Shown: positions 17,627-59,377, counted from the first letter of the stretch. The stretch is 64,000 nucleotides of DNA from Candidatus Staskawiczbacteria bacterium RIFOXYB1_FULL_38_37 (GCA_001822075.1 MHPK01000006.1:58977-122976), one strand, 5' to 3'. The notes: a model not told the origin generated them from the sequence alone. Numbers and translations are program-made.

Positions 17627-17630
17627 ATAA

Positions 17631-18311: not shown

Positions 18312-18314
18312 ATA

Positions 18315-21151: not shown

Positions 21152-21250
21152 TTATAATGCAAATCTACAAATCTTATGCTAATGAATGCGAAAATGCGAA
21201 TTCGCATTTTTGTAGATTAGCATACCATTCGCATTATTTGCATTTTTGTA
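21152..21250. repeat. repeat family B, intact empty copy (~100-bp imperfect palindrome)
   Basis: ttataatgcaaatctacaaatcttatgctaatgaatgcgaaaatgcgaattcgcatttttgtagattagcataccattcgcattatttgcatttttgtaattataa. Its two halves reappear at 48276-48323 and 48725-48772 split by a GxxExxY gene. Confidence 0.85.
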
Positions 21251-25315: not shown

Positions 25316-25317
25316 AA

Positions 25318-25390
25318 GACATCGTCGAATTACGAATTTTGTACGAATTTACGAATTCGTATATTCGCAGCAAATTCGTTATTCGTTGAT
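25318..25390. repeat. repeat family C copy 3 (between proS start and rseP stop)
   Basis: gacatcgtcgaattacgaattttgtacgaatttacgaattcgtatattcgcagcaaattcgttattcgttgatg. Confidence 0.85.
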
Positions 25391-25398
25391 GATTACTA

Positions 25399-27958: not shown

Positions 27959-28143
27959 TCTTTAATGTTAATTGTTTTCTCTTTCAGAGTCACAACCACT
28001 TTCTGGTGTTCCCTCCAATCTAGTTTATCCAAAAATTCAATGGGCAAGGTAATTCCCATAGTCCTGCCCTTGCCCATTTTTGTTATTTTCCTTATATTTT
28101 TTTCACTTAGATTTCTCATGTTATTTCTACTGTCACGTCTCAT
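27946..28143 (-). CDS. AbrB/MazE/SpoVT-like small DNA-binding protein (possible orphan antitoxin)
   Basis: GITLPIEFLDKLDWREHQKVVVTLKEKTINI has a swapped-hairpin-like pattern. The true start may be the internal MGKGR. Overlaps promoter-like motif D. Confidence 0.35.
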   Translation of the reverse strand: MRRDSRNNMRNLSEKNIRKITKMGKGRTMGITLPIEFLDKLDWREHQKVVVTLKEKTINIKDWKK

Positions 28144-28182
28144 GTCAAATGACAGTAAATTAAATTAATGCTTATTAACCTG
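28104..28182. promoter_or_regulatory. motif D copy 1: ~60-80-bp conserved palindrome-containing element (TTGACA -35 overlapping the palindrome actgtcaaatgacagt) plus TTAAATTAATGCTTATTAACCTG tail
   Basis: cacttagatttctcatgttatttctactgtcacgtctcatgtcaaatgacagtaaattaaattaatgcttattaacctg. Homologous copies at 30971-31022, 49940-50000 and 59258-59314. Confidence 0.55.
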
Positions 28183-28188: not shown

Positions 28189-29910
28189 TTATGCTACTTC
28201 TTGCTGATAACATTTCTCGCAGTAAACAATTTCCGGCCTGTCGGGAGCGTAGCTTGTCTCGAATTTATTGGTACAGCCTGGCTTCATGCACTTTCTGTGC
28301 CAGAGCTTCTGTGGATTTTTCTTTTTAAATCTTTGCATGTGCCTGCAATTAAAACATAACTTTGGAACAGGCACGCTAAGCTTTCTGTATAATTGCAATT
28401 CCTCAGGAATAATCTTAAAGGCTAATGAACAGCCCTCGTTGCATTTACCGCTATGTTCACAACCAATTACTTCATTAAGAATGGTGTCTTGGGTTTCTTC
28501 GATAATATTGGGAACATTTTCTGAAGATAGAGTAACCTTATAATTCCTTTCTTCGGGCTCTCTCCAAAAATATCCTGCCCTTTCTGCCTGCTCTTTATTT
28601 TTGGGAGAATACTCTTGAGCAGCTGTTTCATTATAGGCAAATGGTGCCAGCGAAGCTGGAAAAAAACTGCCATATTTATATTCAATACCGCTTTTGTCTG
28701 TGTATGGCTGTGAATTCATGTGCTTAATTATCTTTGGCAAGAGCTCCTCGTATTCTTCTTTTGTGTATTGTTTGTTTAAGATGCAGTATTCGGCTTTTTT
28801 GATGCCTACACAACCAAAAAGATTATTAGAATTTTCACAGTTATCGCAATATTGGCAATCATAATCATTCCAAACACAAAAACTAAACTTAACGTTGTTG
28901 AGATTTATAGCGCTTACAATTTCATAAGAAAAAGATGATTTATCAACAACAACATACCCATCATGACAATTATTTGAATTATCTCCCCAAGTTAAATATT
29001 TAGAGTCTTCTATGGCGTTAGAACCATAGCATTCAAAACTGTTTTTGGAATTAAAAACATAATCACCAACCACATTTACATTCTTAATACCGTGCATGTA
29101 TTTGGCTATGTTTTCTCCAAAAAATTTATTAGCTTTTGCTAAAACGGCGTCCATCCCTTCACGGGTTTGCAAATTTGATTCTTCAATTTTTTTAAGATAC
29201 TCTTCTTTTGTGTAGGGCTTGTTAAAAATATAATAATTTTTGTTCTTTAAATTTACGCAACCCACGCAGTCTTGGCAATTTGAACAATTTTTAGAGGCCA
29301 CAACATTCCGACAATCAGTGCAGTCTTCAGAAAATTTTGTCATGTAACACTTTTTGCAACCAATACATTCATAGCAAAGCTCGCAATCGTTTGAGGTGTG
29401 GCAATCAATAGCGTTTCTTGAGTGCATAAGCGAATAAGAATAAAGGGAATCTTCATTGTTATCGCTCACAAAAATCATGTAGCAGTTTTTATCATATGCG
29501 GCTCCGTTAACATATTCGCTGTTTGTATTCTGAAAAATAAAAGAATACAAACGTGGCACCCGAAGCTGGAGTTCTCGAAACTGATCAAAAAACGGCCTAG
29601 AAAAATCGTATTCTCTTCCAAAACTCAACGTGTCCCATTTGTCGCCGTGATAGCATTCATTGCAATAAACTGCATACGGCGATTTTGGTGAATAAATAGA
29701 AATTATATTTTTTCTACAAAGGTCGCAGGTGCGGCGATAAAGAGTTCTTTCATTCCTCCATACAACCCGCCTTATAAAACGGCACTCCGGACACCATGTT
29801 GGCGCAGGCACTTTTATTTTTTCATAGAATGCAAAGTCGTCAGGCTCTATTACAAAGTCCTTTTTGCAATTTTGGCATATTTTTGTTTCAGAATTTTTAT
29901 TCATGATCAT
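28189..29910 (-). CDS. cysteine-rich multi-zinc-ribbon protein, paralog P1 (uncharacterised family)
   Basis: 573 aa with ~60 Cys. N-terminal CQNCKKDFVIEPDDFAFYEKIKVPAPTWCPECR, internal duplicated Cys-cluster modules each ending CILNKQYTKEEY, and C-terminal SYAPDRPEIVYCEKCYQQEVA. Paralogous to 31071..32840, 50111..51772, 55188..56840 and 57529..59244. Confidence 0.6.
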   Translation of the reverse strand: MIMNKNSETKICQNCKKDFVIEPDDFAFYEKIKVPAPTWCPECRFIRRVVWRNERTLYRRTCDLCRKNIISIYSPKSPYAVYCNECYHGDKWDTLSFGREYDFSRPFFDQFRELQLRVPRLYSFIFQNTNSEYVNGAAYDKNCYMIFVSDNNEDSLYSYSLMHSRNAIDCHTSNDCELCYECIGCKKCYMTKFSEDCTDCRNVVASKNCSNCQDCVGCVNLKNKNYYIFNKPYTKEEYLKKIEESNLQTREGMDAVLAKANKFFGENIAKYMHGIKNVNVVGDYVFNSKNSFECYGSNAIEDSKYLTWGDNSNNCHDGYVVVDKSSFSYEIVSAINLNNVKFSFCVWNDYDCQYCDNCENSNNLFGCVGIKKAEYCILNKQYTKEEYEELLPKIIKHMNSQPYTDKSGIEYKYGSFFPASLAPFAYNETAAQEYSPKNKEQAERAGYFWREPEERNYKVTLSSENVPNIIEETQDTILNEVIGCEHSGKCNEGCSLAFKIIPEELQLYRKLSVPVPKLCFNCRHMQRFKKKNPQKLWHRKCMKPGCTNKFETSYAPDRPEIVYCEKCYQQEVA

Positions 29911-30914: not shown

Positions 30915-30970
30915 ATGTTCCTCACATACAATTGTATGCTGTTTACATACAATGTGTCAAACAGCTCGCG

Positions 30971-31022
30971 CCTCACGTCTCATGTCAAATGACAGTGAAT
31001 TAAGTTAACGCTTATTAACCTG
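30971..31022. promoter_or_regulatory. motif D copy 2
   Basis: cctcacgtctcatgtcaaatgacagtgaattaagttaacgcttattaacctg. Confidence 0.55.
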
Positions 31023-31035: not shown

Positions 31036-31067
31036 GACGGCTTTTTGCCGAACGGCAAAAAGCCGTC
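31036..31067. terminator. palindromic terminator hairpin (family F) immediately 3' of P2 stop
   Basis: gacggctttttgccgaacggcaaaaagccgtc. Near-identical copy at 50026-50057. Confidence 0.6.
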
Positions 31068-31070: not shown

Positions 31071-32840
31071 CTACGCCACTTCCTTATTGTAGCAATTTTT
31101 ACAATAAACTATTTCAGGACGGTCTGGGGCATAGCTTGTCTCAAACTCATTCTGGCATTTTCCTTTTCCATGGGAATGATTTTCTTTATTGCACATGCAT
31201 TCCCGATGCCAAAGCCTAATAGGCGTACGCTGGGAAAGCCGGGCGAAGTGGCGACAGTTTGGGCACATTTTCGGAATCGGAATGCCCATACGTTTATAAA
31301 AATTCAAATCGCTTGTCGTAATTTTGAAAGCTTGCGTGCATTGGTGATTACATTTTCCATCGTGGGCACACCCGATTATTTCTTTTAAAATCTGATCGCT
31401 TACCTCTTCAATAGAATCTGGAATATTTTCTGCTTTTAAAGTAACAGTATAGCTCTTTACCTCTGGCTCAAGCCACCTATATCCCTGCTTTAGCGCTTCC
31501 TCTTTTGAAATTGGAAAAAGCTCCTGCGCAATGGTTTCGTTGTATGCAAACGCATGCATGTCCAGTGGGAAAGTTGAACCATAGCGATATTCTCTTCCCA
31601 AAGCGTCTTTATAAGGCATTGCATTCATGTGCTCAATAATTTTAGGAATTAGTGCTTCGTATTCTTCTTTTGTATACTGCTTATTCAAAATACAATACTG
31701 TTTTTTGCGCAAACCGACGCAGCCGAATAAATCGGACGAACTCATGCAGTTCACGCAATATTGCGCCCGAACTAACTGGTCCCAGCATTCGTTTGAGAAA
31801 AACACTTGCGAGCATTGCCTGCCAATGCTTGAACATTCATAAATCAATTCTGAATTCTTGCCCCAATATGTATAGTCCATCACATCTTTTGCATCCATGA
31901 TTCCAAAAAGATACTTGCCGTCTTCCACTCTTTCGCAATTAAAACCAACCTGCACATTCTTGCATTCATCAAGCCAGTTACCAGAAATATTTGTACTGTG
32001 ATTTTCAACAACAGCCGGCATTATCTGCTTTTTAACAAATTCCAAAAACCTGCTTTGCATGGCCTCAATCTCGCCACGTTTTTTTGGCCACAATTTTTCA
32101 ATCTGTTTCTTATATTCTTCTTTTGTAAATTGCTCGTTGAAAATGCAATATGATTTATTGCGAAGATTCACACAGCCAAAGCAGTCATTGCAATTCAAAC
32201 AATGAAACAAAAAAGAAGAGCTCACACAACTGCCGCATTCCTGCGAATACATCAAGCGACTGCATCTGTAACAATCAATACACTCAAAACACAATTCAGA
32301 CGAATGGATATTGTAATTATCCATGCTGTCTTTTGAATCCCATACCGAAGTGCCATAAGAACAATTTTCATTATTTGCGGCAGCAAAAATAAGATAGCAA
32401 TCTTTATTGTCGCTTACCCTGTTAGTGTAATCGCTGTTTACATTTATTCCTTGCTGGATAATTCCAAGCCGGGGCACCTTTAAAAACAAATCTTTAAACT
32501 GCTGGAAAAATGGTTTTGAAAAATTATAATCTTTTGCATAAGACTGGGTATCCCATTTGTCTGACCACCAACAAGAATGGCAATAAGCAGTGTAGGGGCT
32601 ATCGGGATGATAAATTAAAATTTTATCTTGACCGCACAAATTGCATTTTCTTTTATAAAGGGCCCTCTCGCCCCTCCATGCCAAACGCTTAATAAGCCGG
32701 CATTCCGGGCACCAGGTTGGCGGGGGGACTTTCATTTTTTCGTAGAACGCAAAATCATCAGGCTCGATGGTAAACTCTTTTTTACAATTCTGGCATGCCC
32801 GCACTGAGCTTGCCGAAGTGTTATTGGTTTCGCTTTGCAT
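31071..32840 (-). CDS. cysteine-rich multi-zinc-ribbon protein, paralog P2
   Basis: 589 aa. CQNCKKEFTIEPDDFAFYEKMKVPPPTWCPECR at the N-terminus and SYAPDRPEIVYCKNCYNKEVA at the C-terminus. Confidence 0.6.
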   Translation of the reverse strand: MQSETNNTSASSVRACQNCKKEFTIEPDDFAFYEKMKVPPPTWCPECRLIKRLAWRGERALYKRKCNLCGQDKILIYHPDSPYTAYCHSCWWSDKWDTQSYAKDYNFSKPFFQQFKDLFLKVPRLGIIQQGINVNSDYTNRVSDNKDCYLIFAAANNENCSYGTSVWDSKDSMDNYNIHSSELCFECIDCYRCSRLMYSQECGSCVSSSFLFHCLNCNDCFGCVNLRNKSYCIFNEQFTKEEYKKQIEKLWPKKRGEIEAMQSRFLEFVKKQIMPAVVENHSTNISGNWLDECKNVQVGFNCERVEDGKYLFGIMDAKDVMDYTYWGKNSELIYECSSIGRQCSQVFFSNECWDQLVRAQYCVNCMSSSDLFGCVGLRKKQYCILNKQYTKEEYEALIPKIIEHMNAMPYKDALGREYRYGSTFPLDMHAFAYNETIAQELFPISKEEALKQGYRWLEPEVKSYTVTLKAENIPDSIEEVSDQILKEIIGCAHDGKCNHQCTQAFKITTSDLNFYKRMGIPIPKMCPNCRHFARLSQRTPIRLWHRECMCNKENHSHGKGKCQNEFETSYAPDRPEIVYCKNCYNKEVA

Positions 32841-32983
32841 AATTTTTTTATTCTTCTATCATAACCGACTAAATTAGTCTGTTATGCATTTTTATTGCTA
32901 CTTACATATGTAAGTAAACGTGTAAATAGCAGATTCTTAGATTAACACTTATCAACCTGAATTTTCCAGCGCAAGCTCAGCTC

Positions 32984-33011
32984 TTGACAAGGCGGTAGAT
33001 GCGAGTATAAT
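32984..33011 (+). promoter_or_regulatory. consensus sigma70 promoter on the + strand (TTGACA-16 nt-TATAAT)
   Basis: cTTGACAaggcggtagatgcgagTATAAT. No + strand ORF follows. Transcript would run to the terminator at 33069-33100. Confidence 0.5.
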
Positions 33012-33017
33012 TAAAAT

Positions 33018-33100
33018 ATAAACGGCTTCGGCCCGACTCTGCCGCAAGGCAGAGGTAAAAAAACAAAAAAATTCAAGGTATCAATTCCTTGAATTTTTTT
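33018..33100 (+). ncRNA. candidate ~85-nt sRNA, antisense to the 3' end of the MazF-like gene
   Basis: Defined only by the upstream consensus promoter and the downstream hairpin + T-run terminator. Contains internal hairpin ctctgccgcaaggcagag. Confidence 0.3.
33069..33100. terminator. bidirectional intrinsic terminator
   Basis: aattcaaggtatcaattccttgaatttttttg with T/A runs on both sides. Confidence 0.6.
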
Positions 33101-33462
33101 GTTAATTTTTCAAAATCATCTGTTTTCATAACGCCTATTTTGTGATCCAAACGCCTAGCATCTATAAGTCTTATCTGAGACAGAATTGCAGCACTCTTAG
33201 CGTTATCCTGAAAAATAAACTGAAAATAAAATTTTGACTCTTTTTCGGTGCGAGTTAATGGGAATGCCAAAAAAATCTCGTTATTAAATTTTTTATAAAT
33301 AATCACTGGCCTCAAAAAATCTGTGCCCCTGCCATCCTGCTCAAAACCAACGTTTACACCCATAGCGCAATACCAAACTTCGCGCTCGTGAAAAAACGGC
33401 CTTGGTTCAATTTTGTTAATCAGTGCTTTTTTATTATGCCATTTTGTGTAATCTTTCATCAT
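33073..33462 (-). CDS. PemK/MazF-family toxin-like protein (no adjacent protein antitoxin)
   Basis: VGFEQDGRGTDFLRPVIIYKK...FLAFPLTRTEK...SQIRLIDARRLDHKIGVMKTDDFEKL matches the MazF/Kid pattern (GxEQxG, RPxlv, PxTs, IRxiDxxRL). Confidence 0.65.
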   Translation of the reverse strand: MMKDYTKWHNKKALINKIEPRPFFHEREVWYCAMGVNVGFEQDGRGTDFLRPVIIYKKFNNEIFLAFPLTRTEKESKFYFQFIFQDNAKSAAILSQIRLIDARRLDHKIGVMKTDDFEKLTKKFKELIP

Positions 33463-37209: not shown

Positions 37210-37902
37210 TTACGAAGTTTGAGTTTCTTGTTCTGCAACTTTTTTTTTGAATTCTTCCCAGTTTAAAGCTTCCCCATTCGCCATTTTGCATATGTCTTTA
37301 AACTGGCAATAACTGCATTGCCAGTTTCTGGGATAATCTGCAAGCCTGGCTGGAACCTCATTCTTTTCTACCTGGGCTTTCAAAGAATTAAATTTATCTA
37401 AAAGAGAATTGCATAGCTGTTCATCGTAATCCACAAAAAATTCTTTCATATCCTGCTGGTCTTTGTCTATGTAAAGCAGTATGCCTTTTTTAATGTTAAA
37501 AAAATGCAGATAAAGCTGTATCTGATAAACATTCTCCTCTTTGGGAGCTGCCATTCTTTTAAAAATCATGCTGTTTATTGATTTTATATCCAGCACATAA
37601 TTTTCATTTCCAATGCATAAAATTGCGTCCGCCCTGCCTGAAATTATTTCGCTCGTCGGAATTGGAATCTCTGTTACAACTCCTAATCTCAAGCGGTATA
37701 AAATGTTAAAAATGCTTCTGTGCATGTTTTCTCCACGTTCAAAAATGCGCATTATTCTTGCGTCCATTGGCTCGCGCGGAGCATTTTTAAACTTAAAAAA
37801 AACAGCGCGCGGGCATTTACCGGCATCTGTAATATAAAACCTCGTCTGGTCTTTATTTTTTTGATTATCCAAATAAAACTGGTCTATAAGCTCTTTTAAC
37901 AT
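37210..37902 (-). CDS. Cas4-like / RecB-family PD-(D/E)XK nuclease with 4-Cys (Fe-S-type) cluster, stand-alone
   Basis: N-terminal Cys (GKCPRA), motif II-III GRADAI...VLDIKS, QhxxY (YQIQLYLHF) and C-terminal CSYCQFKDIC. No CRISPR array or cas1 nearby. Confidence 0.6.
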   Translation of the reverse strand: MLKELIDQFYLDNQKNKDQTRFYITDAGKCPRAVFFKFKNAPREPMDARIMRIFERGENMHRSIFNILYRLRLGVVTEIPIPTSEIISGRADAILCIGNENYVLDIKSINSMIFKRMAAPKEENVYQIQLYLHFFNIKKGILLYIDKDQQDMKEFFVDYDEQLCNSLLDKFNSLKAQVEKNEVPARLADYPRNWQCSYCQFKDICKMANGEALNWEEFKKKVAEQETQTS

Positions 37903-37937: not shown

Positions 37938-38012
37938 ACTAATAATATTTAAATGATAACAATTATAAAAAATATATGCAAATTCCGACCGCTCAAACAC
38001 GTCTGAGCGATT

Positions 38013-38039
38013 AAAAAGCCGCCTTTCGGCGGCTTTTTT
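38013..38039. terminator. bidirectional intrinsic terminator
   Basis: aaaaagccgcctttcggcggctttttt. Confidence 0.65.
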
Positions 38040-38041
38040 AA

Positions 38042-38078
38042 ATTCGTACATTCGTAACAGATTCGTAATTCGTTGATG
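38042..38078. repeat. family C repeat, right half only, directly after rpsI stop
   Basis: attcgtacattcgtaacagattcgtaattcgttgatg matches the right arm of the split copy at 18738-18775. Confidence 0.75.
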
Positions 38079-38672
38079 TTACCTCTTGCTCCATTGCGGG
38101 GCTTTTCTGGCTCTCTTCAATCCGAATTTTTTTCTTTCCCTCATTCTTTCGTCTCTTGTCAAATAGCCTGCTTTTCTTAACCTTTTTCTGAAATTATTAT
38201 TAAAATCAACCAAAACCCTTGCTGTTCCATGCCTTACAGCTTCAGCTTGGGCATGCCTGCCTCCCCCTTTTACTTTTACTGTCACCCTGAATTTATCAAG
38301 GCACTTCATTTTTTTCATTGAAGAAACAGCTGTTTCCTGGTCGTCTTCCAAAGAAAAATATTGCTTGTAAGATTTATTGTTTACTAAAAAATCTTTATCT
38401 CCTTTTGTAAAAAGGCGCACGCGGGCCACAGCTGTTTTTCTCCTTCCAATGGCTTCAAAATAGCGGTCTGGCTTTCCGGTGCTTTCTTTTATTGATTTTG
38501 CAATTTCTTCTGAAATATCTTCATCTGCCATATCAGTTGCCTCATCCTGGTCAATTAAAACCACTGGAGTTTTTTCCTCCTTCGCCTCGCCGAAGCTTTC
38601 AGCGAAGGCGGGTTTCTTTTCTTCAGCAGGTTTTTTCTCTTCTTTTGTTATTTTCTTAGTTCTTGGTGACAT
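38079..38672 (-). CDS. rpsI: 30S ribosomal protein S9 with ~65-aa N-terminal extension
   Basis: C-terminal GGGRHAQAEAVRHGTARVL...KAPQWSKR, canonical S9. Confidence 0.9.
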   Translation of the reverse strand: MSPRTKKITKEEKKPAEEKKPAFAESFGEAKEEKTPVVLIDQDEATDMADEDISEEIAKSIKESTGKPDRYFEAIGRRKTAVARVRLFTKGDKDFLVNNKSYKQYFSLEDDQETAVSSMKKMKCLDKFRVTVKVKGGGRHAQAEAVRHGTARVLVDFNNNFRKRLRKAGYLTRDERMRERKKFGLKRARKAPQWSKR

Positions 38673-39403: not shown

Positions 39404-40384
39404 TTACTCTCCTGATTTTAACTCAAGCCCTAATTTTTTAATTTTTCTTTTTATTTCAGAAATAGCCTTATCCCCCATGCCTTCTAATTCCAATAAAGAC
39501 TTTTCTGATTTTTTCAAAATCCCGCCTACTGTTTTTATATTATTCTTCAGCAAAGCATTAAACGTTCTGCCTGTGAATTTTAAATCTTCAACGTTGATTT
39601 GGGTTGCATCAGAAATTTTTTCTTCTTTGGCAGATGAGCCTTTGCCATGAGCTGTTTTTTCTAAAGGCCTTATTGCTTTGCCTTCAAAAATTACATTAAA
39701 ATGCCTTATCAAAATATCACAAGCTTCAAAAAAGGCTTCTTCTGGAGTAATGGTGCCATCAGTCTCTATTTCCAGGCTCAATTTATCAAAGTCTGTCCTG
39801 TCGCCCACGCGCATATTTTCAATTTGAAAATTTACATTTTTAATGGGAGTGTAGATTGCGTCTAATGCAATTACCCCTATTTCTGATTTTTTAGATGCGC
39901 CAGAGGCCGCTTTTTCAACCTGAACTTTTCTTTGTTCTTTTGGCTCGTACCCCAGTCCTTTTTGTATATGTATTTCTATTTCAAGCTCTGTTTTTTTATC
40001 GCTTATTGTGGCAATGTGAGTTTCTGGGTTCACAAGTTCTACCTGGGAAGGAAGCTTAAAATCAGACCCTTTCACTTCTTTTTCTCCTTTTACTTTAAGC
40101 TCTATTTTGTAATCCTCTCCCTCGTGGATTTTAAATCTTAACTTTTTTAAATTCAAAAGAACCATTATCCCGTCTTCTAAAACTCCGGGGATTGTGGAAA
40201 ACTCATGGGGAGCGCCTTTTATTTTTGCCTCTGTTATGGCAACTCCCTGCAAAGAAGAAAGCAAAACTCTTCTTATGGCATTTCCAATGGTAACACCGTA
40301 TCCAGGATAAAGCCCTTCTATTTCAAAAACCGCTTGGTTATTTTTTTTATGAATTACTTTTGGGGGCAATGGAAGTGAAATCAT
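39404..40384 (-). CDS. rpoA: DNA-directed RNA polymerase subunit alpha
   Basis: 326 aa with N-terminal dimerisation domain and alpha-CTD (SLLELEGMGDKAISEIKRKIKKLGL). Confidence 0.9.
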   Translation of the reverse strand: MISLPLPPKVIHKKNNQAVFEIEGLYPGYGVTIGNAIRRVLLSSLQGVAITEAKIKGAPHEFSTIPGVLEDGIMVLLNLKKLRFKIHEGEDYKIELKVKGEKEVKGSDFKLPSQVELVNPETHIATISDKKTELEIEIHIQKGLGYEPKEQRKVQVEKAASGASKKSEIGVIALDAIYTPIKNVNFQIENMRVGDRTDFDKLSLEIETDGTITPEEAFFEACDILIRHFNVIFEGKAIRPLEKTAHGKGSSAKEEKISDATQINVEDLKFTGRTFNALLKNNIKTVGGILKKSEKSLLELEGMGDKAISEIKRKIKKLGLELKSGE

Positions 40385-40386
40385 GA

Positions 40387-40461
40387 AAAATCATCGAATT
40401 ACGAATTTTTTACGAATTTACGAATTCGTATATTCGTAGCAGATCCGTTATTCGTTGATGG
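40387..40461. repeat. repeat family C copy 4 (between rpoA start and rpsD stop)
   Basis: aaaatcatcgaattacgaattttttacgaatttacgaattcgtatattcgtagcagatccgttattcgttgatg. Confidence 0.85.
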
Positions 40462-41091
40462 TTACCTTGAATAAAATTCGAATATAGAAGAAATTTCCGC
40501 CGGAGCATTTACCTCTTCAAGGTTTGGATCTCCAACAGCTTTTCCTTCAAGTTCTTCTTTGTTTAAATTTAGCCATACCGGAGGCTCATATTTTTTAATC
40601 TGCGCTTGCAAATCTTTGAGCGCTCCTTTTTTCTTTTTATTTTCTTTTATAGAAATTATATCTCCTTTTTTTATGCTGTATGAAGGTATGTTAGCTGGCT
40701 TGCCGTTTATCAAAAAATAACCGTGAGACACCAGCTGCCTTGCTTGCGCCCTTGATTTGGCTATGCCCAAGCGAAAAATCACGTTGTCTAATCTTTTTTC
40801 TAATTTTTTTATAAATTCTTCAGCTATGTTTTCAACTTTTCCCATTTTAGCTAAAGATTCTTCTGCATATTTTTTAAACTGCCTTTCTGAAACTCCGTAC
40901 CATTTCTTCAAAGTCTGCTTTTCTTCTAAAGACTTTTTAAAAGCAGACGGAGAGCCCCCCCTTCTTTTTTTCTGGGGGCCCGGAGCATATGCTCTTTTTA
41001 CCATAGCGCATTTTTGTGAAAAGCACCTCTCTCCTTTCAAAAAGAGTTTTTGCCCCAAACGTCTGCAAGTTTTACATTGATCGTATCTCAT
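40462..41091 (-). CDS. rpsD: 30S ribosomal protein S4
   Basis: 209 aa with N-terminal Zn-ribbon-like CKTCRR...C..C and an S4 domain. Confidence 0.9.
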   Translation of the reverse strand: MRYDQCKTCRRLGQKLFLKGERCFSQKCAMVKRAYAPGPQKKRRGGSPSAFKKSLEEKQTLKKWYGVSERQFKKYAEESLAKMGKVENIAEEFIKKLEKRLDNVIFRLGIAKSRAQARQLVSHGYFLINGKPANIPSYSIKKGDIISIKENKKKKGALKDLQAQIKKYEPPVWLNLNKEELEGKAVGDPNLEEVNAPAEISSIFEFYSR

Positions 41092-48277: not shown

Positions 48278-48772
48278 AATGCAAATCTACAAATCTTATG
48301 CTAATGAATGCGAAAATGCGAATATCGGTTATTCTTTTGCTAAAGAATTTAATATCCTTTTAGGAACTATATATTTTTTTCTAAAATTGACTAAAATTCC
48401 TAGTTTTTTGTTCAAAGCAGTTAAATATCTTTTCACCTGATAATAATCTTCAGTGATGAGTAGTTTTTTAGCTTTTACTTCTAATATTATTTTATCTTCA
48501 ATTAAAAAATCGACTTTATTTCTACCTTCTGCCTCGCCTTCAAAAGCCGGAGGTAAAATTTTTTCTCTTCTGTAATTTATATTTATTTTTTTAAGATAAC
48601 TTTCTATAAGGTCGCAGTATTGTTTTTCATTAAGAAATTGACCTAACTCATTATGAACTGCGAATAGAATCCCATTAATTTTGTAAGATAAATCTGAATA
48701 AATTACTTTTTCCATAAAAATCACATTCGCATTTTTGTAGATTAGCATACCATTCGCCGTATTTGCATTTTA
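48276..48772. mobile_element. family B element split by a GxxExxY gene: candidate autonomous copy (empty copy at 21152-21250)
   Basis: Left half 48276-48323 (ataatgcaaatctacaaatcttatgctaatgaatgcgaaaatgcgaat) and right half 48725-48772 (attcgcatttttgtagattagcataccattcgccgtatttgcatttta) flank ORF 48329..48748. At 21152-21250 the same two halves are contiguous. Confidence 0.65.
48329..48748 (-). CDS. GxxExxY-family protein (PD-(D/E)XK nuclease-like), paralog of 18344..18748
   Basis: GILFAVHNELGQFLNEKQYCDLIESYL...VDFLIEDKIILEVKAKK...KLGILVNF. Confidence 0.65.
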   Translation of the reverse strand: MLIYKNANVIFMEKVIYSDLSYKINGILFAVHNELGQFLNEKQYCDLIESYLKKININYRREKILPPAFEGEAEGRNKVDFLIEDKIILEVKAKKLLITEDYYQVKRYLTALNKKLGILVNFRKKYIVPKRILNSLAKE

Positions 48773-49867: not shown

Positions 49868-49892
49868 GTTTTTTTGGCTCGAGACAAAAAAC
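49868..49892. terminator. palindromic hairpin family E (tttttggctcgag[ac]caaaaa)
   Basis: gtttttttggctcgagacaaaaaac. Perfect-palindrome versions at 56877-56910 and 57478-57507. Confidence 0.5.
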
Positions 49893-49939
49893 AGACAATT
49901 TCATATTACTCTTGTTACTCATATTATTTCTAACTTGTG

Positions 49940-50000
49940 CTTCTACTGTCACGTCTCATGTCACGTCTACTGCCAAATGACAGTGAATGTTTTATTTTAA
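49940..50000. promoter_or_regulatory. motif D copy 3 (upstream of pgk, downstream of P3)
   Basis: cttctactgtcacgtctcatgtcacgtctactgccaaatgacagtgaatgttttattttaa. Confidence 0.5.
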
Positions 50001-50025
50001 CATATGTTATTGGCTCAGTCTCATA

Positions 50026-50057
50026 GACGGGTTTTTGCCGAACGGCAAAAACCCGTC
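50026..50057. terminator. palindromic terminator hairpin family F
   Basis: gacgggtttttgccgaacggcaaaaacccgtc, differing at one stem pair from 31036-31067. Confidence 0.6.
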
Positions 50058-50110
50058 TATCTTTATTTTTTTTAGCCTCACGTGAGGGGTAACGTTACTG
50101 GTTACGTAAC

Positions 50111-51772
50111 CTAAGCCACTTCACGCTGGTAGCATTCCATACAGGCTATTTTTTGAAATCCAAGTTCTGGACTATAATAATGTTCAATTTCTTTATTGCA
50201 ATGTGCGCAAATTCCGCACTGCAACTCAACCATATGGCTAAAGGGTTTGTAGTGCTCTTGTGTGCGCCAGTCAAAATGCCTGTTTGGAAGCGGAATACCG
50301 TGCTCTTTATAAAATGCCAGCTCGTCTTTTGTAATATTATAACTTAATTTGGTTTCAGGGCATAAAATACGCTGTTTTGTAATTTCATCTTTTACATCAT
50401 CTATACTATCTGGCAAAGTGTCGGCTGTTATAATGTTTTCGTAATGCGGCTTTGAAGCCTCTTCCCACTTGGCGCCAAACTGAAGGGCTTCTGTTTTTGT
50501 CATGGGAAACTGCATGTGAGCCAAAGAAAGGTTGTATCCGGAATATGCGGCTGAGAGCGGCCAAAGCCTTCCCCACTCTCCATTTTTTTTCATATCGCTC
50601 TTAATTTTTTCAACCAAACTCTCATATTCTTCTTTTGTATATTGTTTGTTCAAAACACAATATTTCTTTTTTCGTAAACCCACACAACCAAAACAATATT
50701 CAGATTCCTCGCAAAAGTCTAAATAGCTACTATAACGACAATTAGTAGTGTAAAGATTGCATAGGTTGCCGTACGCGAACTGGTCCGACGACCCAAAAGC
50801 GCACTTCTCGCTTTTAAGAGCGCCCACCGAATCAATGATTTCTTTATTCTGAAAACCTCTAAAAACGTAATGGCAATTTTCCGATTCTTCAAGAAAATAA
50901 CATTGATGGCAATTTTTATCATTCGTGATAAGGTTTCCTGTGGAATTCACCGTCTGAACATTATAATTCTGTCGGTGCACAGCATCCTGTTGGATATGCT
51001 TCCAAAATTCTTTTTTTAATTTTTCAACAGATGCTCGCGATTTTAGGTTATATTCTTCAAGCTTTTTCTCGTATTCTTCTTTGGAATATGGCTGGTTTAA
51101 AATATGGTATTTTTTATTTTTTAGATTCCAGCACATAAAACAGTTTTGGCAGTTTCGGCAGTCATATAAAAATAAGCTGTCAATGCAGTCGCGGGAATTA
51201 AAAGAATATTTTAGGTTGTAACTTTTGAAACAAAACAGGCAATCGTATGAACGCTCCAGGTCAAAAGAATAAGTTACATCAATACATTTTTTACAATTTG
51301 CTAAACGATATCCATAGATGATTGACTCAATGCGAAAAGCGGAGCGCGTAAGGTGTGCGTCTTTTGATTCCCACAAATCATCGGCCCAATCACAATTAGT
51401 ATTTTTTGTGCCGACTTGGTGAGGGTGCGGAACTTTCGATTGCAGCTCAACAAGCTGGTCAATAAATAAACGCGAGGCATCATAGTCTTTTCCATATGTG
51501 AGCGGGTCCCAGGCATCGGATACAAATTCGTTCCTTTCATAAATGGGGAAAGGAACTGATTCTGGCAGAACCGTTATAATTGTTTTGCCGCTCAAGGCCG
51601 ATTTGCCAATTCTAAATCTCCCAAACACCCAAAAAGCCAAAAGATATTTAAAGCGGCAACTGGGGCACATGGTGGGCATGGGCAAATCCATCTTTTTGTA
51701 AAGGGAAATATCATCTGAATAGATGACAAAATCTTGATTACACTTTTGGCATTGTTTGGTTTCGGTATGCAT
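50111..51772 (-). CDS. cysteine-rich multi-zinc-ribbon protein, paralog P3 (most divergent)
   Basis: 553 aa. N-terminus CQKCNQDFVIYSDD...CPSCR, internal CVLNKQYTKEEYE module, C-terminus IACMECYQREVA. Confidence 0.55.
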   Translation of the reverse strand: MHTETKQCQKCNQDFVIYSDDISLYKKMDLPMPTMCPSCRFKYLLAFWVFGRFRIGKSALSGKTIITVLPESVPFPIYERNEFVSDAWDPLTYGKDYDASRLFIDQLVELQSKVPHPHQVGTKNTNCDWADDLWESKDAHLTRSAFRIESIIYGYRLANCKKCIDVTYSFDLERSYDCLFCFKSYNLKYSFNSRDCIDSLFLYDCRNCQNCFMCWNLKNKKYHILNQPYSKEEYEKKLEEYNLKSRASVEKLKKEFWKHIQQDAVHRQNYNVQTVNSTGNLITNDKNCHQCYFLEESENCHYVFRGFQNKEIIDSVGALKSEKCAFGSSDQFAYGNLCNLYTTNCRYSSYLDFCEESEYCFGCVGLRKKKYCVLNKQYTKEEYESLVEKIKSDMKKNGEWGRLWPLSAAYSGYNLSLAHMQFPMTKTEALQFGAKWEEASKPHYENIITADTLPDSIDDVKDEITKQRILCPETKLSYNITKDELAFYKEHGIPLPNRHFDWRTQEHYKPFSHMVELQCGICAHCNKEIEHYYSPELGFQKIACMECYQREVA

Positions 51773-55187: not shown

Positions 55188-56840
55188 TTACGCTACTTCT
55201 TGATTGTAGCAACTTTTGCATAAAATATCTTTTACTTCCTCTTCAGGATAGTGGGTTTGAAATTCAGCGCCGCATTTAGAGCAGGTTCTCTTGTACAGCC
55301 TCAACTGCTTAACCCAACGATTAAACTTTTCTTGAATACGGCAGAATGGACATTTTCTTGGCAAAGGAAAATTCATATTTCTCAAAAAATTCAACTCTGC
55401 TTTTATAATTTTAAATCCCTTTTTGCAATTTTGACATTCTATTACTTCGTTCAAAATCTCGTCAGAAGCATCTTTTATATGGTCTGGCAAATCGCTGGGT
55501 TTTTTTGTAATTTGATATTGCGCGATTTTTATTTCTGTTCGGTTTTGTGGATAAAAACTCTGAGCAATTGTGTCATTATATGCAAACGGACTTAAATTTA
55601 TCGGAAAAAATTCTCCATACTCTTTTCTTTCCTTCATCTGTTCAATAATTTTTGCCTTTAAGGTATTATAATCTTCTTCTGAATAACGCTTGTTAAGAAT
55701 GCAATAACTTCCACTTTTAATTGACATACAACCAAAAAGATGAGAGGTGCGACCATAACAAGAAACAGAATATTCAATATCGCGCGCTCCATGTCCGCCA
55801 CTAAGGCAGAACTTTAATTCAGATGCCCCCTCGCCGCACGAACAACATTCATAACACAAAGAAACATTGTTGCCCCAAGCTGTAAAATCATATGTGTCTT
55901 TAATCGGCGAAAGATAAGCCAAAGAAATATATTTTGAATTCTCAGCTCCCTCTACCTCAAAACATTGCTGGCAATTTTTGGATTGAAAAACATAACTGCC
56001 CAGGCAATTAACCGAAAAATCGTCATACGCGGGGCGGGGCGGAAATTTTTTCCAGTGTTCCTCTGCTCGCCTTTTAATTTCCTGATATGTTGCGTATGAA
56101 CCCAAATCCCATTTTTTAATTTCCTCAAAATAAGTTTCTTTGGTATAAGGTTTATTAAAAATATAATATTTTTTGTTTCTTAAATTCGCGGAAGCAAAAC
56201 AGTCTTGGCAATTATCTGAATCCCTTAGAAAAAAACAATTCAGCGACTCTGTAACGTTTCCCTTTGTGCCAGCGCATCGGTTGCATCTGAACAAATTAGT
56301 TGCGTCAAAACAAAAATCTGACTGCATTGCCATTGAAACATCAAGCAAAGATTTGTTCTTTAAAAGATAATGGCCATACATGCAGTCTTCGTTGAAGTCG
56401 CCAAAAAAAATCAAATAACAATTTTTAAGATGTCCAACTTGATTAGTGTAGTCTGAATTCTCTAATGTAGCATAATCAGCATCAAGACCCAGCTGGGGTA
56501 CCTGATGCCAAAACTCATTAAATTGGTCAAAAAATGGCCTGGAAAAATCATAATCTCGGCCATACGAAAACGGGTCCCAATCGTCAGACCACCAACATTT
56601 TGCGCAGTACACTTTATATGGTGAATCCGCAGAATGAGCTAAAATCAGTTCCTTCTGACAAAAATCACACTTGCGCTTGTAAAGTTTAAACATATTATAA
56701 AACGCCATGCGTCTTTGCCTCCTGCACTCTGGGCAAAAAGTCGGCGGCGGAACTTTTATCTTTTCGTAGAATGCAAAATCATCGGCTTCAATTACAAAGT
56801 CCTTTTTGCAGTTCTGGCATTGTTTGGTTTCGGAATTCAT
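55188..56840 (-). CDS. cysteine-rich multi-zinc-ribbon protein, paralog P4
   Basis: 550 aa. CQNCKKDFVIEADDFAFYEKIKVPPPTFCPECR at the N-terminus and CKSCYNQEVA at the C-terminus. Confidence 0.6.
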   Translation of the reverse strand: MNSETKQCQNCKKDFVIEADDFAFYEKIKVPPPTFCPECRRQRRMAFYNMFKLYKRKCDFCQKELILAHSADSPYKVYCAKCWWSDDWDPFSYGRDYDFSRPFFDQFNEFWHQVPQLGLDADYATLENSDYTNQVGHLKNCYLIFFGDFNEDCMYGHYLLKNKSLLDVSMAMQSDFCFDATNLFRCNRCAGTKGNVTESLNCFFLRDSDNCQDCFASANLRNKKYYIFNKPYTKETYFEEIKKWDLGSYATYQEIKRRAEEHWKKFPPRPAYDDFSVNCLGSYVFQSKNCQQCFEVEGAENSKYISLAYLSPIKDTYDFTAWGNNVSLCYECCSCGEGASELKFCLSGGHGARDIEYSVSCYGRTSHLFGCMSIKSGSYCILNKRYSEEDYNTLKAKIIEQMKERKEYGEFFPINLSPFAYNDTIAQSFYPQNRTEIKIAQYQITKKPSDLPDHIKDASDEILNEVIECQNCKKGFKIIKAELNFLRNMNFPLPRKCPFCRIQEKFNRWVKQLRLYKRTCSKCGAEFQTHYPEEEVKDILCKSCYNQEVA

Positions 56841-56876
56841 AATTAAAAAATATCAGATTAAACAGATTAAACAGAA

Positions 56877-56910
56877 AGTTAGTTTTTTGGCTCGAGCCAA
56901 AAAACTAACT
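56877..56910. terminator. perfect 34-bp palindrome, family E hairpin
   Basis: agttagttttttggctcgagccaaaaaactaact. Confidence 0.55.
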
Positions 56911-57444
56911 CAACTTATATCTTAGTTTGATTTTTTCTTGATTATCAATAAAATTAAGCAATCCAAACCGGATATATTTTTCCAAATTAAACAGTCTGGC
57001 AAAATCATCAATTTCTTTCTTGCAATCATACGGATGCAGAAATAGGCTTTCCTGCAACTCATAAAATCCTCCCATTTTTAATCTGTATCGCAATGCATTT
57101 CTGTCTTTTCTATGAGAATTAGGAATATCAAAAGCCACCATTCTCCATTTTCCATCCCATTTCCCTTTTTTATGACCCAATCGCCTAAATCTAAAATTTA
57201 TAACTCGCAGAATTCCTTTTTCAGTAAGAGAAACTAAAATTGATCCTTCGTAATTTTTCTTTTTTTCCAATAGCTTTTGTTTTTTGAGATCTGTCACTGC
57301 AGAAATTAACTGTTTTGATGTAAAACCATGAATGCCTTTTATTGCGTCGTTTAGTAAAATAAGCCGAGCGTCTCCATGGCGACCAACTTTTTCGCTGCTT
57401 GCGTAATATATTCTCCATAATATTTCTTCAACAATTTTATTCAT
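56905..57444 (-). CDS. PaaX-like protein: N-terminal winged-helix + C-terminal Cas2/VapD-like domain
   Basis: WRMVAFDIPNSHRKDRNALRYRLKMGGFYELQESLFLHPYD resembles the Cas2-type beta-alpha core. N-terminal HTH-like region. Confidence 0.4.
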   Translation of the reverse strand: MNKIVEEILWRIYYASSEKVGRHGDARLILLNDAIKGIHGFTSKQLISAVTDLKKQKLLEKKKNYEGSILVSLTEKGILRVINFRFRRLGHKKGKWDGKWRMVAFDIPNSHRKDRNALRYRLKMGGFYELQESLFLHPYDCKKEIDDFARLFNLEKYIRFGLLNFIDNQEKIKLRYKLS

Positions 57445-57477
57445 GCTTCCATTATATAAAACAGATATGAAATAGTA

Positions 57478-57507
57478 AACTTTTTGGCTCGAGCCAAAAA
57501 ACTAACC
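57478..57507. terminator. family E palindromic hairpin (second copy flanking the PaaX-like gene)
   Basis: aaactttttggctcgagccaaaaaactaacc. Confidence 0.55.
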
Positions 57508-57528: not shown

Positions 57529-59244
57529 TTAAGCTACTTCGGCGTTGTAACAGCTTTCGCAATAAATAATCTCCGGCCTGTCCGGAGCATATGAGGTTTT
57601 TATTTCTTTTCCGCATTTGGCGCATTGGCGGTCCCAAAGCTTAAATGGCGTGCGCTGGGCAAGCCTTCTATAATGCCTACAGTTAGAGCATAGCCTTGGC
57701 AAAGCAAGATTCATTTTTCTGTAAAATTCAAGCTCAGAGAGAATAATTTTGAATGCACCCATACATTGTTCGTTGCAATTACCCTGATGTTCGCACTCTA
57801 TTACCTGATTTAAAATATTGTCTTTTACGTTTTTTATGTGGTCTGGCAAGTCAGCAGCTTTAAGCGTGATGGAATAATTTTTTATGTCAGGCTCTCTCCA
57901 CTTGTACCCTTTTTCCAAAATTTCTGATTTTGTTTTTGGGTAATATTCCTGGGCGATCGTTTCGTTGTAAGCAAAAGGCGATATTTCAGATGGAAAAAAT
58001 TCTCCGTATTTATACACTCTTCCCTTTTTATCTACATAAGGCATGTCATTCATATGAGCAATTACTTTAGGAACAAGTTCTTCATATTCTTCTTTGGTGT
58101 AATGTTTGTTTAAGATACAATATTTTTTGCTGCGAAGCCCCACGCATCCAAACAAATTTGCTGAATTTTTGCACGCATAAGTATAATTTGTATTTTGACA
58201 AGAATGAGTAAAAACGGCAAAAAAATTGCGAGTAGCGTTATCTCCAGTATCCATAACTTCATAAGAATTGTCGTGGGTTGCGCCTACGCCCGGACCGCCA
58301 TCATAAATATCATGCAAAGGCCCCACAGCATGCAATATGTACTTACAACCTTCAGCTCCCCCGAATATATCAAACCCCATATAAACGTTTTTAGAATTAA
58401 GAATATTATTTCCAATGCAATTCACTGATTTATAAATAAATCCGTAGCGCCTTGGATATTGCATTATAAATTCGGCTAATTTTTTTCTGAAATCAGTAAG
58501 CCCTTTATAACTTCCAAAGTCATATTTATTCCGCTCTTTTGCATATTCTTCTTTTGTGTATTGCTGGTTAAAAATACAGTTTGACTTGTTTCGCAAATTT
58601 ATACAACCCAAAGAATCTATCATATTTTTGCATGCATGCAAAAATGCGCAGTTAACACTTTCGTCACTATCATAAGAAAAGTAAATTCGATTTAAATCTC
58701 CGCACGCAGTATTATCGTAACATTGCATCTGATTAAAAGCTAAATATAAATCAAGAGAATTTTTACAATTTACGGCTCCGCGAGAATAACTTAAATCTTC
58801 ATCTGTCATAGAGGCATATACAAGATAGCAATTTTTCATATCAAGGTTATGATTTCCGTATTCAGAATTTACTACATTAGAATTAGCGAGATTAGGAAGA
58901 GGAGCTTTTTTGAACAGTTCATGAAATTGCTGAAAAAACGGTTTTGAAAAATCATAATCCATTCCAGACTCAAGCTGATCCCATTTGTCTGACCACCAAT
59001 AATCTCTTTCATAAACCAAGAGTGGCTGTTCTGGAGAAAACATCGTAATAATATCTTTGCCGGTGGCATTACACTTTCTATGATATAGAGTTCGCTCGTT
59101 TCTCCAACTCATTCGCCGTACAATCCTGCACTCTGGACAAAATGTCGGCGGCGGGACTTTTATCTTTTCATAGAACGCAAAGTCATCGGGCTCGATAATA
59201 AACTCGTTATGGCAGTTTTGACATTGTCTAGTCTCTGATTGCAT
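57529..59244 (-). CDS. cysteine-rich multi-zinc-ribbon protein, paralog P5
   Basis: 571 aa. CQNCHNEFIIEPDDFAFYEKIKVPPPTFCPECR at the N-terminus and SYAPDRPEIIYCESCYNAEVA at the C-terminus. Confidence 0.6.
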   Translation of the reverse strand: MQSETRQCQNCHNEFIIEPDDFAFYEKIKVPPPTFCPECRIVRRMSWRNERTLYHRKCNATGKDIITMFSPEQPLLVYERDYWWSDKWDQLESGMDYDFSKPFFQQFHELFKKAPLPNLANSNVVNSEYGNHNLDMKNCYLVYASMTDEDLSYSRGAVNCKNSLDLYLAFNQMQCYDNTACGDLNRIYFSYDSDESVNCAFLHACKNMIDSLGCINLRNKSNCIFNQQYTKEEYAKERNKYDFGSYKGLTDFRKKLAEFIMQYPRRYGFIYKSVNCIGNNILNSKNVYMGFDIFGGAEGCKYILHAVGPLHDIYDGGPGVGATHDNSYEVMDTGDNATRNFFAVFTHSCQNTNYTYACKNSANLFGCVGLRSKKYCILNKHYTKEEYEELVPKVIAHMNDMPYVDKKGRVYKYGEFFPSEISPFAYNETIAQEYYPKTKSEILEKGYKWREPDIKNYSITLKAADLPDHIKNVKDNILNQVIECEHQGNCNEQCMGAFKIILSELEFYRKMNLALPRLCSNCRHYRRLAQRTPFKLWDRQCAKCGKEIKTSYAPDRPEIIYCESCYNAEVA

Positions 59245-59257
59245 ATTTATTTTGTTT

Positions 59258-59314
59258 CACTTAGATTTCTCATGTCATTTCTACTGTCAAATGACAGTGA
59301 ATGTTTTATTTTAA
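59258..59314. promoter_or_regulatory. motif D copy 4, directly upstream of P5 (best-preserved; 16-bp perfect palindrome ACTGTCAAATGACAGT)
   Basis: cacttagatttctcatgtcatttctactgtcaaatgacagtgaatgttttattttaa. Minus strand gives TTGACA overlapping the palindrome, 60 nt upstream of the ATG. Confidence 0.55.
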
Positions 59315-59377
59315 TATATCAAAAAACCCCGAAATCCGCCAGCTGGCGGAAACGGGGCCAAATCACAAATTACAAAA

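Follow-up and report, generated by a model that had tools for sequence, protein, structure and literature searches.

What is motif D, a short element that recurs upstream of four genes in a 64,000-nucleotide (nt) stretch of DNA (the window) from Candidatus Staskawiczbacteria, an uncultivated groundwater bacterium of the Patescibacteria, or Candidate Phyla Radiation (CPR)? A reading made without database searches (the sequence-only reading) had proposed a conserved promoter/operator of about 60 base pairs (bp), four copies of which are associated with a family of Cys-rich (P) genes and carry a −35 box, TTGACA, embedded in a perfect 16-bp palindrome. To our knowledge, gene regulation in these bacteria is almost uncharted and no promoter or operator has been mapped in them; literature searches on CPR promoters, leaderless transcripts and treble clefs found nothing specific. 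The minus strand carries every gene of the window, including all long open reading frames (ORFs) near the elements, and the elements are therefore read on that strand (the gene strand).

The results give good support to a different identity. Motif D is the 5′ control module, together with the first codons, of an operon formed by a mazE-like gene and P genes; one copy is intact and three are derivatives. Judged from sequence, the module is probably an array of binding sites for the predicted AbrB-fold protein of 57 residues that the mazE-like gene encodes. The earlier observation is partly confirmed and its interpretation partly supported: an operator-like element linked to an AbrB-like gene stands, but a −35 box set in a perfect palindrome does not.

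The copies of motif D and their boxes

Related sequence is present at all four sites, far beyond what chance would give. Within the window the core CATGTCAAATGACAGTRAAT has four matches at up to three mismatches (0.01 expected) and the 32-nt head has two (0.00 expected), and none of the seven exact TCTMMTGTCA boxes of the 64 kb falls outside the four elements. The element cores are more than 90% identical, against protein identities of only 32-48% among the five P paralogues of the window. The copies lie where they had been placed relative to genes, upstream of the mazE-like gene (copy 1), the NTase-HEPN-P1 unit (copy 2), pgk (copy 3) and P5 (copy 4). They are, however, not one uniform element. 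Copies 1 and 2 form one subfamily and copies 3 and 4 another, the flanks outside the boxes also being common within each pair, and copy 2 shares only about 35 nt and the tail. The 16-bp palindrome is perfect in copy 4 only, where 7-bp arms enclose a non-symmetric AA/TT centre. Copy 3 has one arm mismatch (ACTGCCA), read as U-G on the gene strand. In copies 1 and 2 one side is CATGTCA, and only 5 bp pair with the adjacent unit. The tail ascribed to three copies is attached to two of them (copies 1 and 2), whereas the third occurrence is unattached to motif D and belongs to a fifth module, upstream of P2 (Table 1).

The internal structure of the element had been missed. On the gene strand the module consists of a short palindrome followed by 10-nt boxes at 12-nt spacing, with the start codon embedded in the last B-type box. 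Box A is TGACAGTAGA and box B is TGACATGAGA. In each copy one inverted half box (ACTGTCA) is followed by TT and then by one to three direct boxes, and neighbours in either orientation keep the 12-nt spacing. The head, CACTTAGATTTCTCAT, had been counted as promoter/operator sequence. It is the reverse complement of ATGAGAAATCTAAGTG and is coding, not intergenic: it holds the ATG and first codons of the 57-residue ORF.

Copy 1 is intact and precedes the mazE-like gene, which is followed by holB. An 11-bp stem between the left arm and the A box is predicted for its RNA, and the B box falls in the loop. Its tail is homologous to CAGGTTAACAnnTGTTAACCTG in relatives (loci L002, L044 and L045) and folds on the gene strand as an 8-bp hairpin with G-U pairs. 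Copy 2 ends after one B box. A separate promoter serves the NTase-HEPN pair downstream; it is overlapped by a palindrome of its own and followed by a GAGGAA Shine-Dalgarno sequence. Copies 3 and 4 each run into a stub ORF. The fifth module has another type of palindrome and can be aligned with the sequence that precedes the mazE-like gene of L047. Whatever the model, copies 2 and 3 may be inert relics.

Table 1. Positions of motif D, its parts and other features of the window. Positions are counted from the first nucleotide of the window.
Feature	Position	Strand	Remarks
Copy 1, box array	28114-28159	−	Start codon in B′ box
Copy 1, inverted half box	28159-28150	−	TTTACTGTCA
Copy 1, B box	28147-28138	−	TGACATGAGA
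Copy 1, A box	28135-28126	−	TGACAGTAGA
Copy 1, B′ box	28123-28114	−	TAACATGAGA; holds the start codon
Copy 1, tail	28160-28182	−	CAGGTTAATAAGCATTAATTTAA; degenerate type II palindrome directly after P1 stop
Stand-alone gene, predicted SpoVT/AbrB fold (MazE-like), 57 residues	27946-28119	−	ATG 28119-28117; ORF: MRNLSEKNIRKITKMGKGRTMGITLPIEFLDKLDWREHQKVVVTLKEKTINIKDWKK
Copy 2, truncated	30971-31022	−	Tail 31000-31022; inverted half box and B box 30978-30996; then unrelated sequence
Promoter of NTase-HEPN-P1 unit, sigma-70-like	30931-30960	−	TTGACA-18-TACAAT, 11/12 matches (promoter scan); outside motif D
Copy 3	49922-50009	−	Decayed stub before pgk
Copy 3, type II core remnant	49998-50009	−	TAACATATGTTA
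Copy 3, palindrome	49984-49969	−	ACTGTCATTTGGCAGT
Copy 3, boxes	A′ 49975-49966; B 49963-49954; A 49951-49942	−	
Copy 3, stub	ATG 49922	−	TAGAAATAAT and ATG; decayed 21-codon stub running into hairpin before pgk
Copy 4	59247-59298	−	Palindrome ACTGTCATTTGACAGT 59298-59283; A box 59289-59280; B box 59277-59268
Copy 4, stub ORF	59273-59247	−	MRNLSETK and stop, 8 codons; stop 2 nt before P5 ATG (59244)
AT-rich flank common to copies 3 and 4	59299-59321	−	ATATRTTAAAATAAAACATTC on gene strand; −10-like TATATT, TAAAAT
Intrinsic terminator of VirD4/TrwB-like ATPase gene	59321-59357	−	CCCCG...CGGGG stem and T6 run on gene strand; read by eye, unflagged in scan
Fifth module, upstream of P2	32860-32962	−	Tail 32937-32959; type III palindrome TACTTACATATGTAAGTA 32897-32918; decayed stub
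P family genes	28189-29910; 31071-32840; 50111-51772; 55188-56840; 57529-59244	−	
PaaX-like gene, start region	57451-57479	−	TTTACT-17-TATAAT-6-ATG
Long hairpins, two families	56876-56911, 57478-57503, 49873-49897; 31036-31067, 50023-50060		
ATTCGTA/ACGAAT family	17549-17632; 18302-18334; 18731-18777; 25313-25396; 38000-38083; 40382-40465		
TCGCAT/TTAGCAT/TTAGTAT family	21191-21246; 48716-48771		Also upstream of 37210-37902 and 5207-6091

A predicted AbrB-fold protein and its box array

Homologues of the 57-residue protein fall into 23 clusters, nearly all of the same length and with the N-terminus MRNLSEKNIRKITKMGKG almost invariant. Because this N-terminus is nearly invariant while the codons differ synonymously between loci, the ATG inside the box is the real start of the ORF. 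The Pfam match to MazE_antitoxin is weak (E=0.0018, below the cut-off), and a search of PDB sequences with the protein profile gave no match. The AlphaFold (AF2) model (predicted local distance difference test, pLDDT, 71) has the topology β-β-α-β-β. When the PDB was searched by fold with this model, the top 22 matches all belonged to the SpoVT/AbrB superfamily and included AbrB-N (probability 0.97), MazE, SpoVT, Abh, VapB, Sso7c4 and C68. The model thus supports a SpoVT/AbrB fold. The protein ends right after the last strand of this fold and has no C-terminal extension. No adjacent cognate toxin was found in the window or in the loci of relatives, where holB, P genes or unrelated ORFs lie downstream; the only PemK-like gene of the window (33073-33462) is about 5 kb away, behind mreB. 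A type II toxin-antitoxin module of the mazEF kind is rejected, as both an adjacent toxin and a C-terminal toxin-binding region are missing. As modelled, the protein is a bare DNA-binding domain and not a typical antitoxin.

Orthologues were fetched by protein, independently of the DNA motif, from five species (L002, L044, L045, L047 and L049). The arrangement [palindrome]-TGACAGTAGAARTRAC-ATGAGAAA precedes the same gene in L002, L044, L045 and L049, so that boxes over the gene's own start region, an A box and a B box with the ATG, are conserved in four of the five. Conservation of the A box and of the A-B arrangement extends to species whose mazE-like proteins differ by up to 28% and whose intergenic DNA cannot otherwise be aligned. 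Scanning metagenomes for the A-B pattern added 18 modules. Twelve of them head a mazE-like gene; another forms the start of a P gene, in frame with it (MRDTSETKVCQNC), and the remaining five lead into stubs of 8-15 codons, which lie before P genes (three), holB and tatD and end at, or no more than 10 nt from, the next start. The usual start of P proteins, M-x-x-ETK-x-CQNC, resembles the module start MRNLSE(T/K)K. In sum, a gene of the SpoVT/AbrB fold lies directly downstream of copy 1, of the modules of all five species fetched by protein and of 12 of the 18 modules found by DNA. Modules with stubs accompany an intact mazE-like gene wherever enough sequence is available, namely in the window and in the L044/L063 and L047/L060 contigs, and the loci L004 and L005, which were fetched without a mazE-like gene, have no boxes. 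Scanning of genome contigs with the two-box pattern TGACAKKAGANNTGACAKKAGA gave 37 single matches in unrelated phyla, none of them in Patescibacteria, which are chance matches; the A-B pattern had no match in viral contigs, giving no sign of a phage or mobile carrier.

Two of the associations first reported for motif D are looser than they appeared. The link to P genes is frequent, holding for about half of the modules, but it is not obligatory. The position just after the stop of a P or ATPase gene holds in the window but is incidental, since in other genomes the upstream neighbour varies (a P gene, ruvA and others). The ATG, by contrast, always follows in fixed register, and the element is therefore assigned to the downstream gene.

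The layout is operator-like, in that repeated boxes adjoin the gene for an AbrB-fold DNA-binding protein, which is the usual arrangement of autoregulated operators; AbrB, MazE and AbrB-type VapB bind repeats at their own promoters. This part of the proposed repressor-controlled operator, for which an AbrB-like protein had been named as a candidate, is retained, and the palindrome as an operator with a −35 box is not. As in the AbrB, MazE, AbrB-type VapB and PrlF operators, a small swapped-hairpin protein lies behind short direct and inverted repeats over its own start. Unlike those proteins, the one described here has only a 57-residue DNA-binding domain, with no toxin-binding tail and no adjacent toxin. 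Its array, which is known from sequence alone, also heads P genes and stub ORFs and has the start codon inside a box. Arrays of Omega (pSM19035) and MetJ share with the module a constant centre-to-centre spacing of direct or inverted boxes and a variable box number, but these are ribbon-helix-helix proteins with 7- or 8-bp units, and there is no homology to the system described here.

Several other known elements were rejected by inspection. An E. coli-type LexA box needs CTGT-N8-ACAG and the spacer here is N6; MetJ boxes (AGACGTCT) occur in one locus only and have the wrong unit length; LytTR-type repeats have the wrong spacing; sigma-54 promoters would need a GG/GC pair, which is absent; and integron attC sites are excluded by the lack of GTTRRRY cores and of a nearby integrase.

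A close functional precedent for autoregulation through a box array, by analogy, is MraZ, a member of the AbrB superfamily that autoregulates through four short boxes with 6-nt spacers, the transcription start lying inside the first box (PMC12957436). In both cases an AbrB-superfamily regulator comes first in an operon behind three to four tandem short boxes spaced at about one helical turn (PMC12957436). MraZ has about 150 residues in two domains and GTG(G/T) boxes at a 10-bp period, and it lies upstream of cell-division (dcw) genes (PMC12957436). In contrast, the protein described here has a single domain of 57 residues, and its TGACA..AGA boxes of 10 nt have a 12-bp period, include one inverted box and precede P genes or holB. 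Membership in the MraZ family is rejected, as the protein domains, the box sequence and period and the downstream genes all differ.

We consider it about an even chance (roughly 0.5) that the AbrB-fold protein binds the box array, regulating its own gene and co-regulating P genes, with a separate hairpin beside the boxes. Dimers of the protein would bind the boxes cooperatively, one per box, and would cover the transcription start or the early transcribed region together with the start codon, thereby repressing the protein's own gene and those P genes that carry the module. The palindrome would be a separate structural element, a hairpin at the transcript's 5′ end or close to it, and TTGACA would be one arm of the palindrome plus the start of the first box rather than a −35 box. 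Cooperative binding fits because the 10-mers are conserved, their 12-nt spacing is constant in either orientation, they lie at the start region and they are linked to an AbrB-fold protein.

Several observations weigh against this reading. The region upstream of the L047 mazE-like gene differs, with a type III palindrome and no A box, though A boxes occur elsewhere in that genome. The pattern used for the metagenome scan contained ATGAGA and was thereby biased to mazE-like starts. The protein family lacks the D of the DXXXR motif and has TKMGKGR instead. The inverted half box keeps only 7 of 10 positions, and the counterpart of AGA is not conserved. Finally, the fixed register of the ATG, the purine-rich sequence and the hairpin-type covariation of the palindrome would fit a role at the RNA level equally well.

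The copies also record how the module has moved. The mazE-like gene ends as ...TGGAAAAAATAAAAATATG-(P gene) in L045, L044 and L002, and the stub of copy 4 reads ATGAGAAATCTAAGTGAAACAAAATAAATATG-(P5); its junction GAAACAAAATAAATATG matches the junction GGAAAAAATAAAAATATG between the mazE 3′ end and the P gene in the same three loci. Such a stub is what would be expected had a deletion removed the ORF from one A-run, at codons 6-8, to another, at its stop. L045 has the order P-module-mazE-P-pgk where the window has P3-copy 3-pgk, and L059 has a module and stub before holB where the window has module-mazE-holB. Orthologues of P5 in closer relatives (L073, L071 and L002) are without motif D and have −10-like hexamers 6-7 nt before the ATG. 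In L073 a flank, TTTTTTGATA..TAAAAT, aligns with the upstream flank of copy 4 and, with the −10-like TAGGAT, runs straight to the ATG of the P5 orthologue; the AT-rich flank of copy 4 aligns with TTTTTTGATAGGATAAAATC-ATG there. Because L073 aligns without the element, the element appears to have been inserted downstream of an existing P5 promoter region, and the AT-rich flank of copy 4 probably carries the actual P5 promoter.

This history raises the possibility that the copies have no present function and are leftovers of duplicated or rearranged 5′ ends of P and mazE-like genes, alike through recent duplication or gene conversion and of consequence only as recombination substrates that expand, contract and rearrange P arrays. 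Copies 2 and 3 are clearly decayed or truncated, the copy 4 stub is a deletion product, flanks outside the boxes are shared within the two pairs, P5 orthologues manage without the element, and the number of units varies as slippage would have it. We nevertheless regard this explanation as improbable. The A box and the A-B arrangement have outlasted protein divergence of up to 28% between species, and a palindrome is kept beside the boxes even when its sequence has been replaced.

The palindrome and the promoter question

Five unrelated palindromes occur at the same position of the module: ACTGTCAnnTGACAGT, CAGGTTnnnn..nnnnAACCTG (type II), GCTACTTACA..TGTAAGTAGC, TTCCAAn6TTGGAA and GGTTGTCATATGACAACC, the last of which was found only between P genes that lack boxes. 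A perfect palindrome with arms of at least 6 bp abuts the first box in 17 of 23 modules, against 4% of random positions. The tail found in the window is a decayed CAGGTT...AACCTG palindrome, the core of which copy 3 retains. In the type II family the inner arms change jointly (AACA/TGTT, ATCA/TGAT, GCCC/GGGC, GTCA/TGAC); 94.7% of cells are paired, compensatory changes occur at three pairs, and none of 500 shuffles reaches the covariation score. Type II palindromes have 12 G-U pairs on the gene strand and 5 on the other. The type I arms are invariant and hence uninformative on covariation. Identical DNA-binding loops (KMGKGRTMGITLP) of the AbrB-like protein occur with three palindrome types. 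The palindrome as the specific site of that protein is therefore rejected, and it is better understood as a structure, a hairpin.

These properties are also what an RNA-level 5′ leader would show, which is the main alternative to the operator. A promoter would lie upstream, and the palindrome would be a stem-loop near the 5′ end that stabilises or delimits the mRNA. The purine-rich boxes and AUG would form a Shine-Dalgarno-independent initiation region, possibly with an RNA-binding factor, and the stub ORFs would hand ribosomes to the next gene by termination-reinitiation. Besides the recurrence of the palindrome in unrelated types and its compensatory changes, the U-G nature of the sole arm mismatch of copy 3 speaks for such a leader, as does the decay of type II in the window lineage, where type I is present. 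So do the rarity of Shine-Dalgarno sequences in the window, the L073 flank that reaches the ATG and suggests insertion downstream of a promoter, and the closeness of stub stops to the next start codon, which they overlap or abut in six of seven cases (ATGA, TGATG, or gaps of 2, 3 and 10 nt). On the other hand, the fold z-scores are weak (+0.1 to −1.25), and with Rfam 15 only four tRNAs pass in the window and nothing relevant appears at E≤1 around the elements. The excess of G-U pairs is not significant and half of it falls at the terminal pair, the stop-start closeness of copy 4 is inherited from the mazE-P junction and requires no selection, and initiation could suffer, not gain, from a hairpin whose end lies 9-14 nt before the AUG. 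The strong conservation of the 10-mer points to a sequence-specific reader, beyond mere open structure. An RNA leader is possible but doubtful; it is compatible with binding of the AbrB-fold protein to the boxes as DNA, and the two readings are not mutually exclusive.

Short palindromes between co-directional genes, with compensatory changes and interchangeable sequence, are likewise known as repetitive extragenic palindromic (REP)-like elements and as 5′ stabilising stem-loops such as that of B. subtilis cggR-gapA. In contrast to REP elements, the palindromes here have no evident RAYT transposase, are present in few copies and are tied to a box array and a start codon, and their suggested RNA role comes from sequence.

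Intrinsic termination is not indicated on the gene strand, where the palindrome is followed by AGAAAUGAC and the terminator scan made no call; its only call there, a weak one, was on the plus strand at 59282-59299. On that strand the palindrome and a T-rich run could be an intrinsic terminator that stops antisense transcription or ends a cis-antisense RNA of about 60 nt started at promoter-like sites in the 5′ end of the downstream gene. Promoter-like sites do lie to the left on the plus strand (59218-59247, TTGACA-18-CATATT; 49900-49927; 28070-28098), and a T-run follows most of the orthologous palindromes. The stems are short and AT-rich, however, and the A-richness of the gene strand in all intergenic regions yields T-runs everywhere. 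Coding (CQNC and N-I codons) dictates the promoter-like sites, and in the region of copies 1 and 2 such matches are no commoner than in shuffles. On the plus strand the copy 3 mismatch becomes C-A, and the palindromes of copies 1 and 2 lack a T-run behind them. An antisense role is very improbable.

The sequence-only reading placed the −35 box of a sigma-70 promoter at the TTGACA of the palindrome, the palindrome itself being the operator of a dimeric repressor. TTGACA is present in copies 1, 2 and 4 (copy 3 has TTGGCA), and the organism does use consensus sigma-70 promoters (TTGACA-16-TATAAT at 32984-33011; TTGACA-18-TACAAT at 30960-30931). Copies 2-4 follow hairpins or terminators, so transcription must restart nearby. 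Yet no copy has a −10-like hexamer 16-18 bp downstream, where AATCTA, CGTGAC, AATAAC and GCTGTT are found, and no promoter in the scan uses the TTGACA of the palindrome. Nor is its place fixed, since the distance to the ATG varies in 12-nt steps and is 12 nt in L049 but 23 nt in copy 1; in L049 a −10 box at 17 bp would put the transcription start inside the coding sequence. Neither is the sequence conserved, as orthologous modules in L002, L044, L045, L047, L053 and L068 have other, unrelated types in its place (for example GGTTGCCCGTGGGCAACC). The palindrome is, moreover, imperfect in the sole copy that drives an intact gene. A promoter of this exact design is decidedly improbable.

Shine-Dalgarno sequences are very rare among the genes of the window. 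Several genes, such as the PaaX-like one (Table 1), have the ATG 6-7 nt behind a −10-like hexamer, and so do P5 orthologues in relatives (TAGGAT-6-ATG, TAAGAT-6-ATG). Leaderless or short-leader mRNAs are plausible on these two grounds. The module itself as a leaderless start was rejected, as its own TAGAAA/TAGACG lies only 4 nt before the ATG, a poor fit.

Palindromes of the CAGGTT...AACCTG kind also occur between P genes that have no A or B boxes (L005, 8253-8272 and 13527-13546; L004, 9969-9990 and 11750-11770). They lie 7-26 nt before the next start codon and punctuate long P arrays every two or three genes. Long, near-perfect hairpins of two families, TTTTTTGGCTCGAGCCAAAAAA and GACGGSTTTTTGCCGAACGGCAAAAASCCGTC, recur between genes of the window, and related ones are found between P genes in L002 and L044; many are palindromic through the loop, with centres resembling restriction sites (CTCGAG, GCGGCCGC).

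P gene arrays and other repeats of the window

P proteins have about 570 residues, are Cys-rich and give weak matches to treble-clef zinc fingers. More than 7,900 homologues were found, and the source of the P5 protein and its relatives is Candidatus Staskawiczbacteria. Neighbouring genes in the window encode a VirD4/TrwB-like ATPase with a treble-clef finger, a PaaX-like protein and an NTase-HEPN pair, and include holB, frr and pgk. In relatives (L002, L004, L005, L044 and L045) up to eight P genes stand in tandem, adjoining VirD4/TrwB-like ATPases with the same type of zinc finger, and between the members of such arrays toxin-antitoxin or defence pairs (NTase-HEPN, MNT-HepT, AbiEii, Fic) have been inserted.

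The window contains further elements. On the plus strand, opposing all genes, 32984-33110 begins with a perfect consensus promoter (TTGACA-16-TATAAT, 12/12); two small hairpins come next, and then a terminator-like hairpin that is bidirectional (33062-33103). A transcript of about 90 nt could arise there and run across the 3′ end of the PemK-like toxin gene, beside which no antitoxin lies. Tandem ATTCGTA/ACGAAT units that reach the ATG make up a second family of upstream elements; its members precede genes for a class II aminoacyl-tRNA synthetase, ftsX, ftsE and rpoA and lie near rpsI and a PDDEXK gene. A third is built of TCGCAT/TTAGCAT/TTAGTAT units, two 56-nt copies of which are 89% identical, and precedes an unannotated gene encoding 180 residues and the region of a DHH-family gene. 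Arrays of short tandem boxes beside start codons seem to be general in this genome. A 104-nt sequence is present twice, 6.7 kb apart and 96% identical (6093-6196 and 12755-12858).

Motif D provides a cis element concrete enough to be tested, in which the 10-nt boxes, their register and the start codon are defined, together with one small protein as candidate regulator. Regulation through tandem boxes by an AbrB-type protein is a well-known kind of mechanism, so that what is gained is a lineage-specific example and not a new principle. The element is linked to a very large Cys-rich family, which lies in tandem arrays beside VirD4/TrwB-like ATPases. The remodelling of these arrays is documented by duplication of the module, by precise loss of the small gene and by toxin-antitoxin pairs inserted at the module. 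A bolder proposal, and a rather unlikely one, is that the module is a portable cassette of the Staskawiczbacteria clade. It would combine a sequence-independent hairpin, boxes read by the AbrB-fold protein as DNA or RNA and a start codon within a box, and recombination would move it among P genes, holB, tatD and pgk; the small ORF could be excised between two A-runs to leave a stub that ends at the start codon of the next gene. If that proposal were true, the 57-residue protein would be a master switch of the very large P-protein/VirD4-like ATPase loci in these episymbiont-like bacteria.

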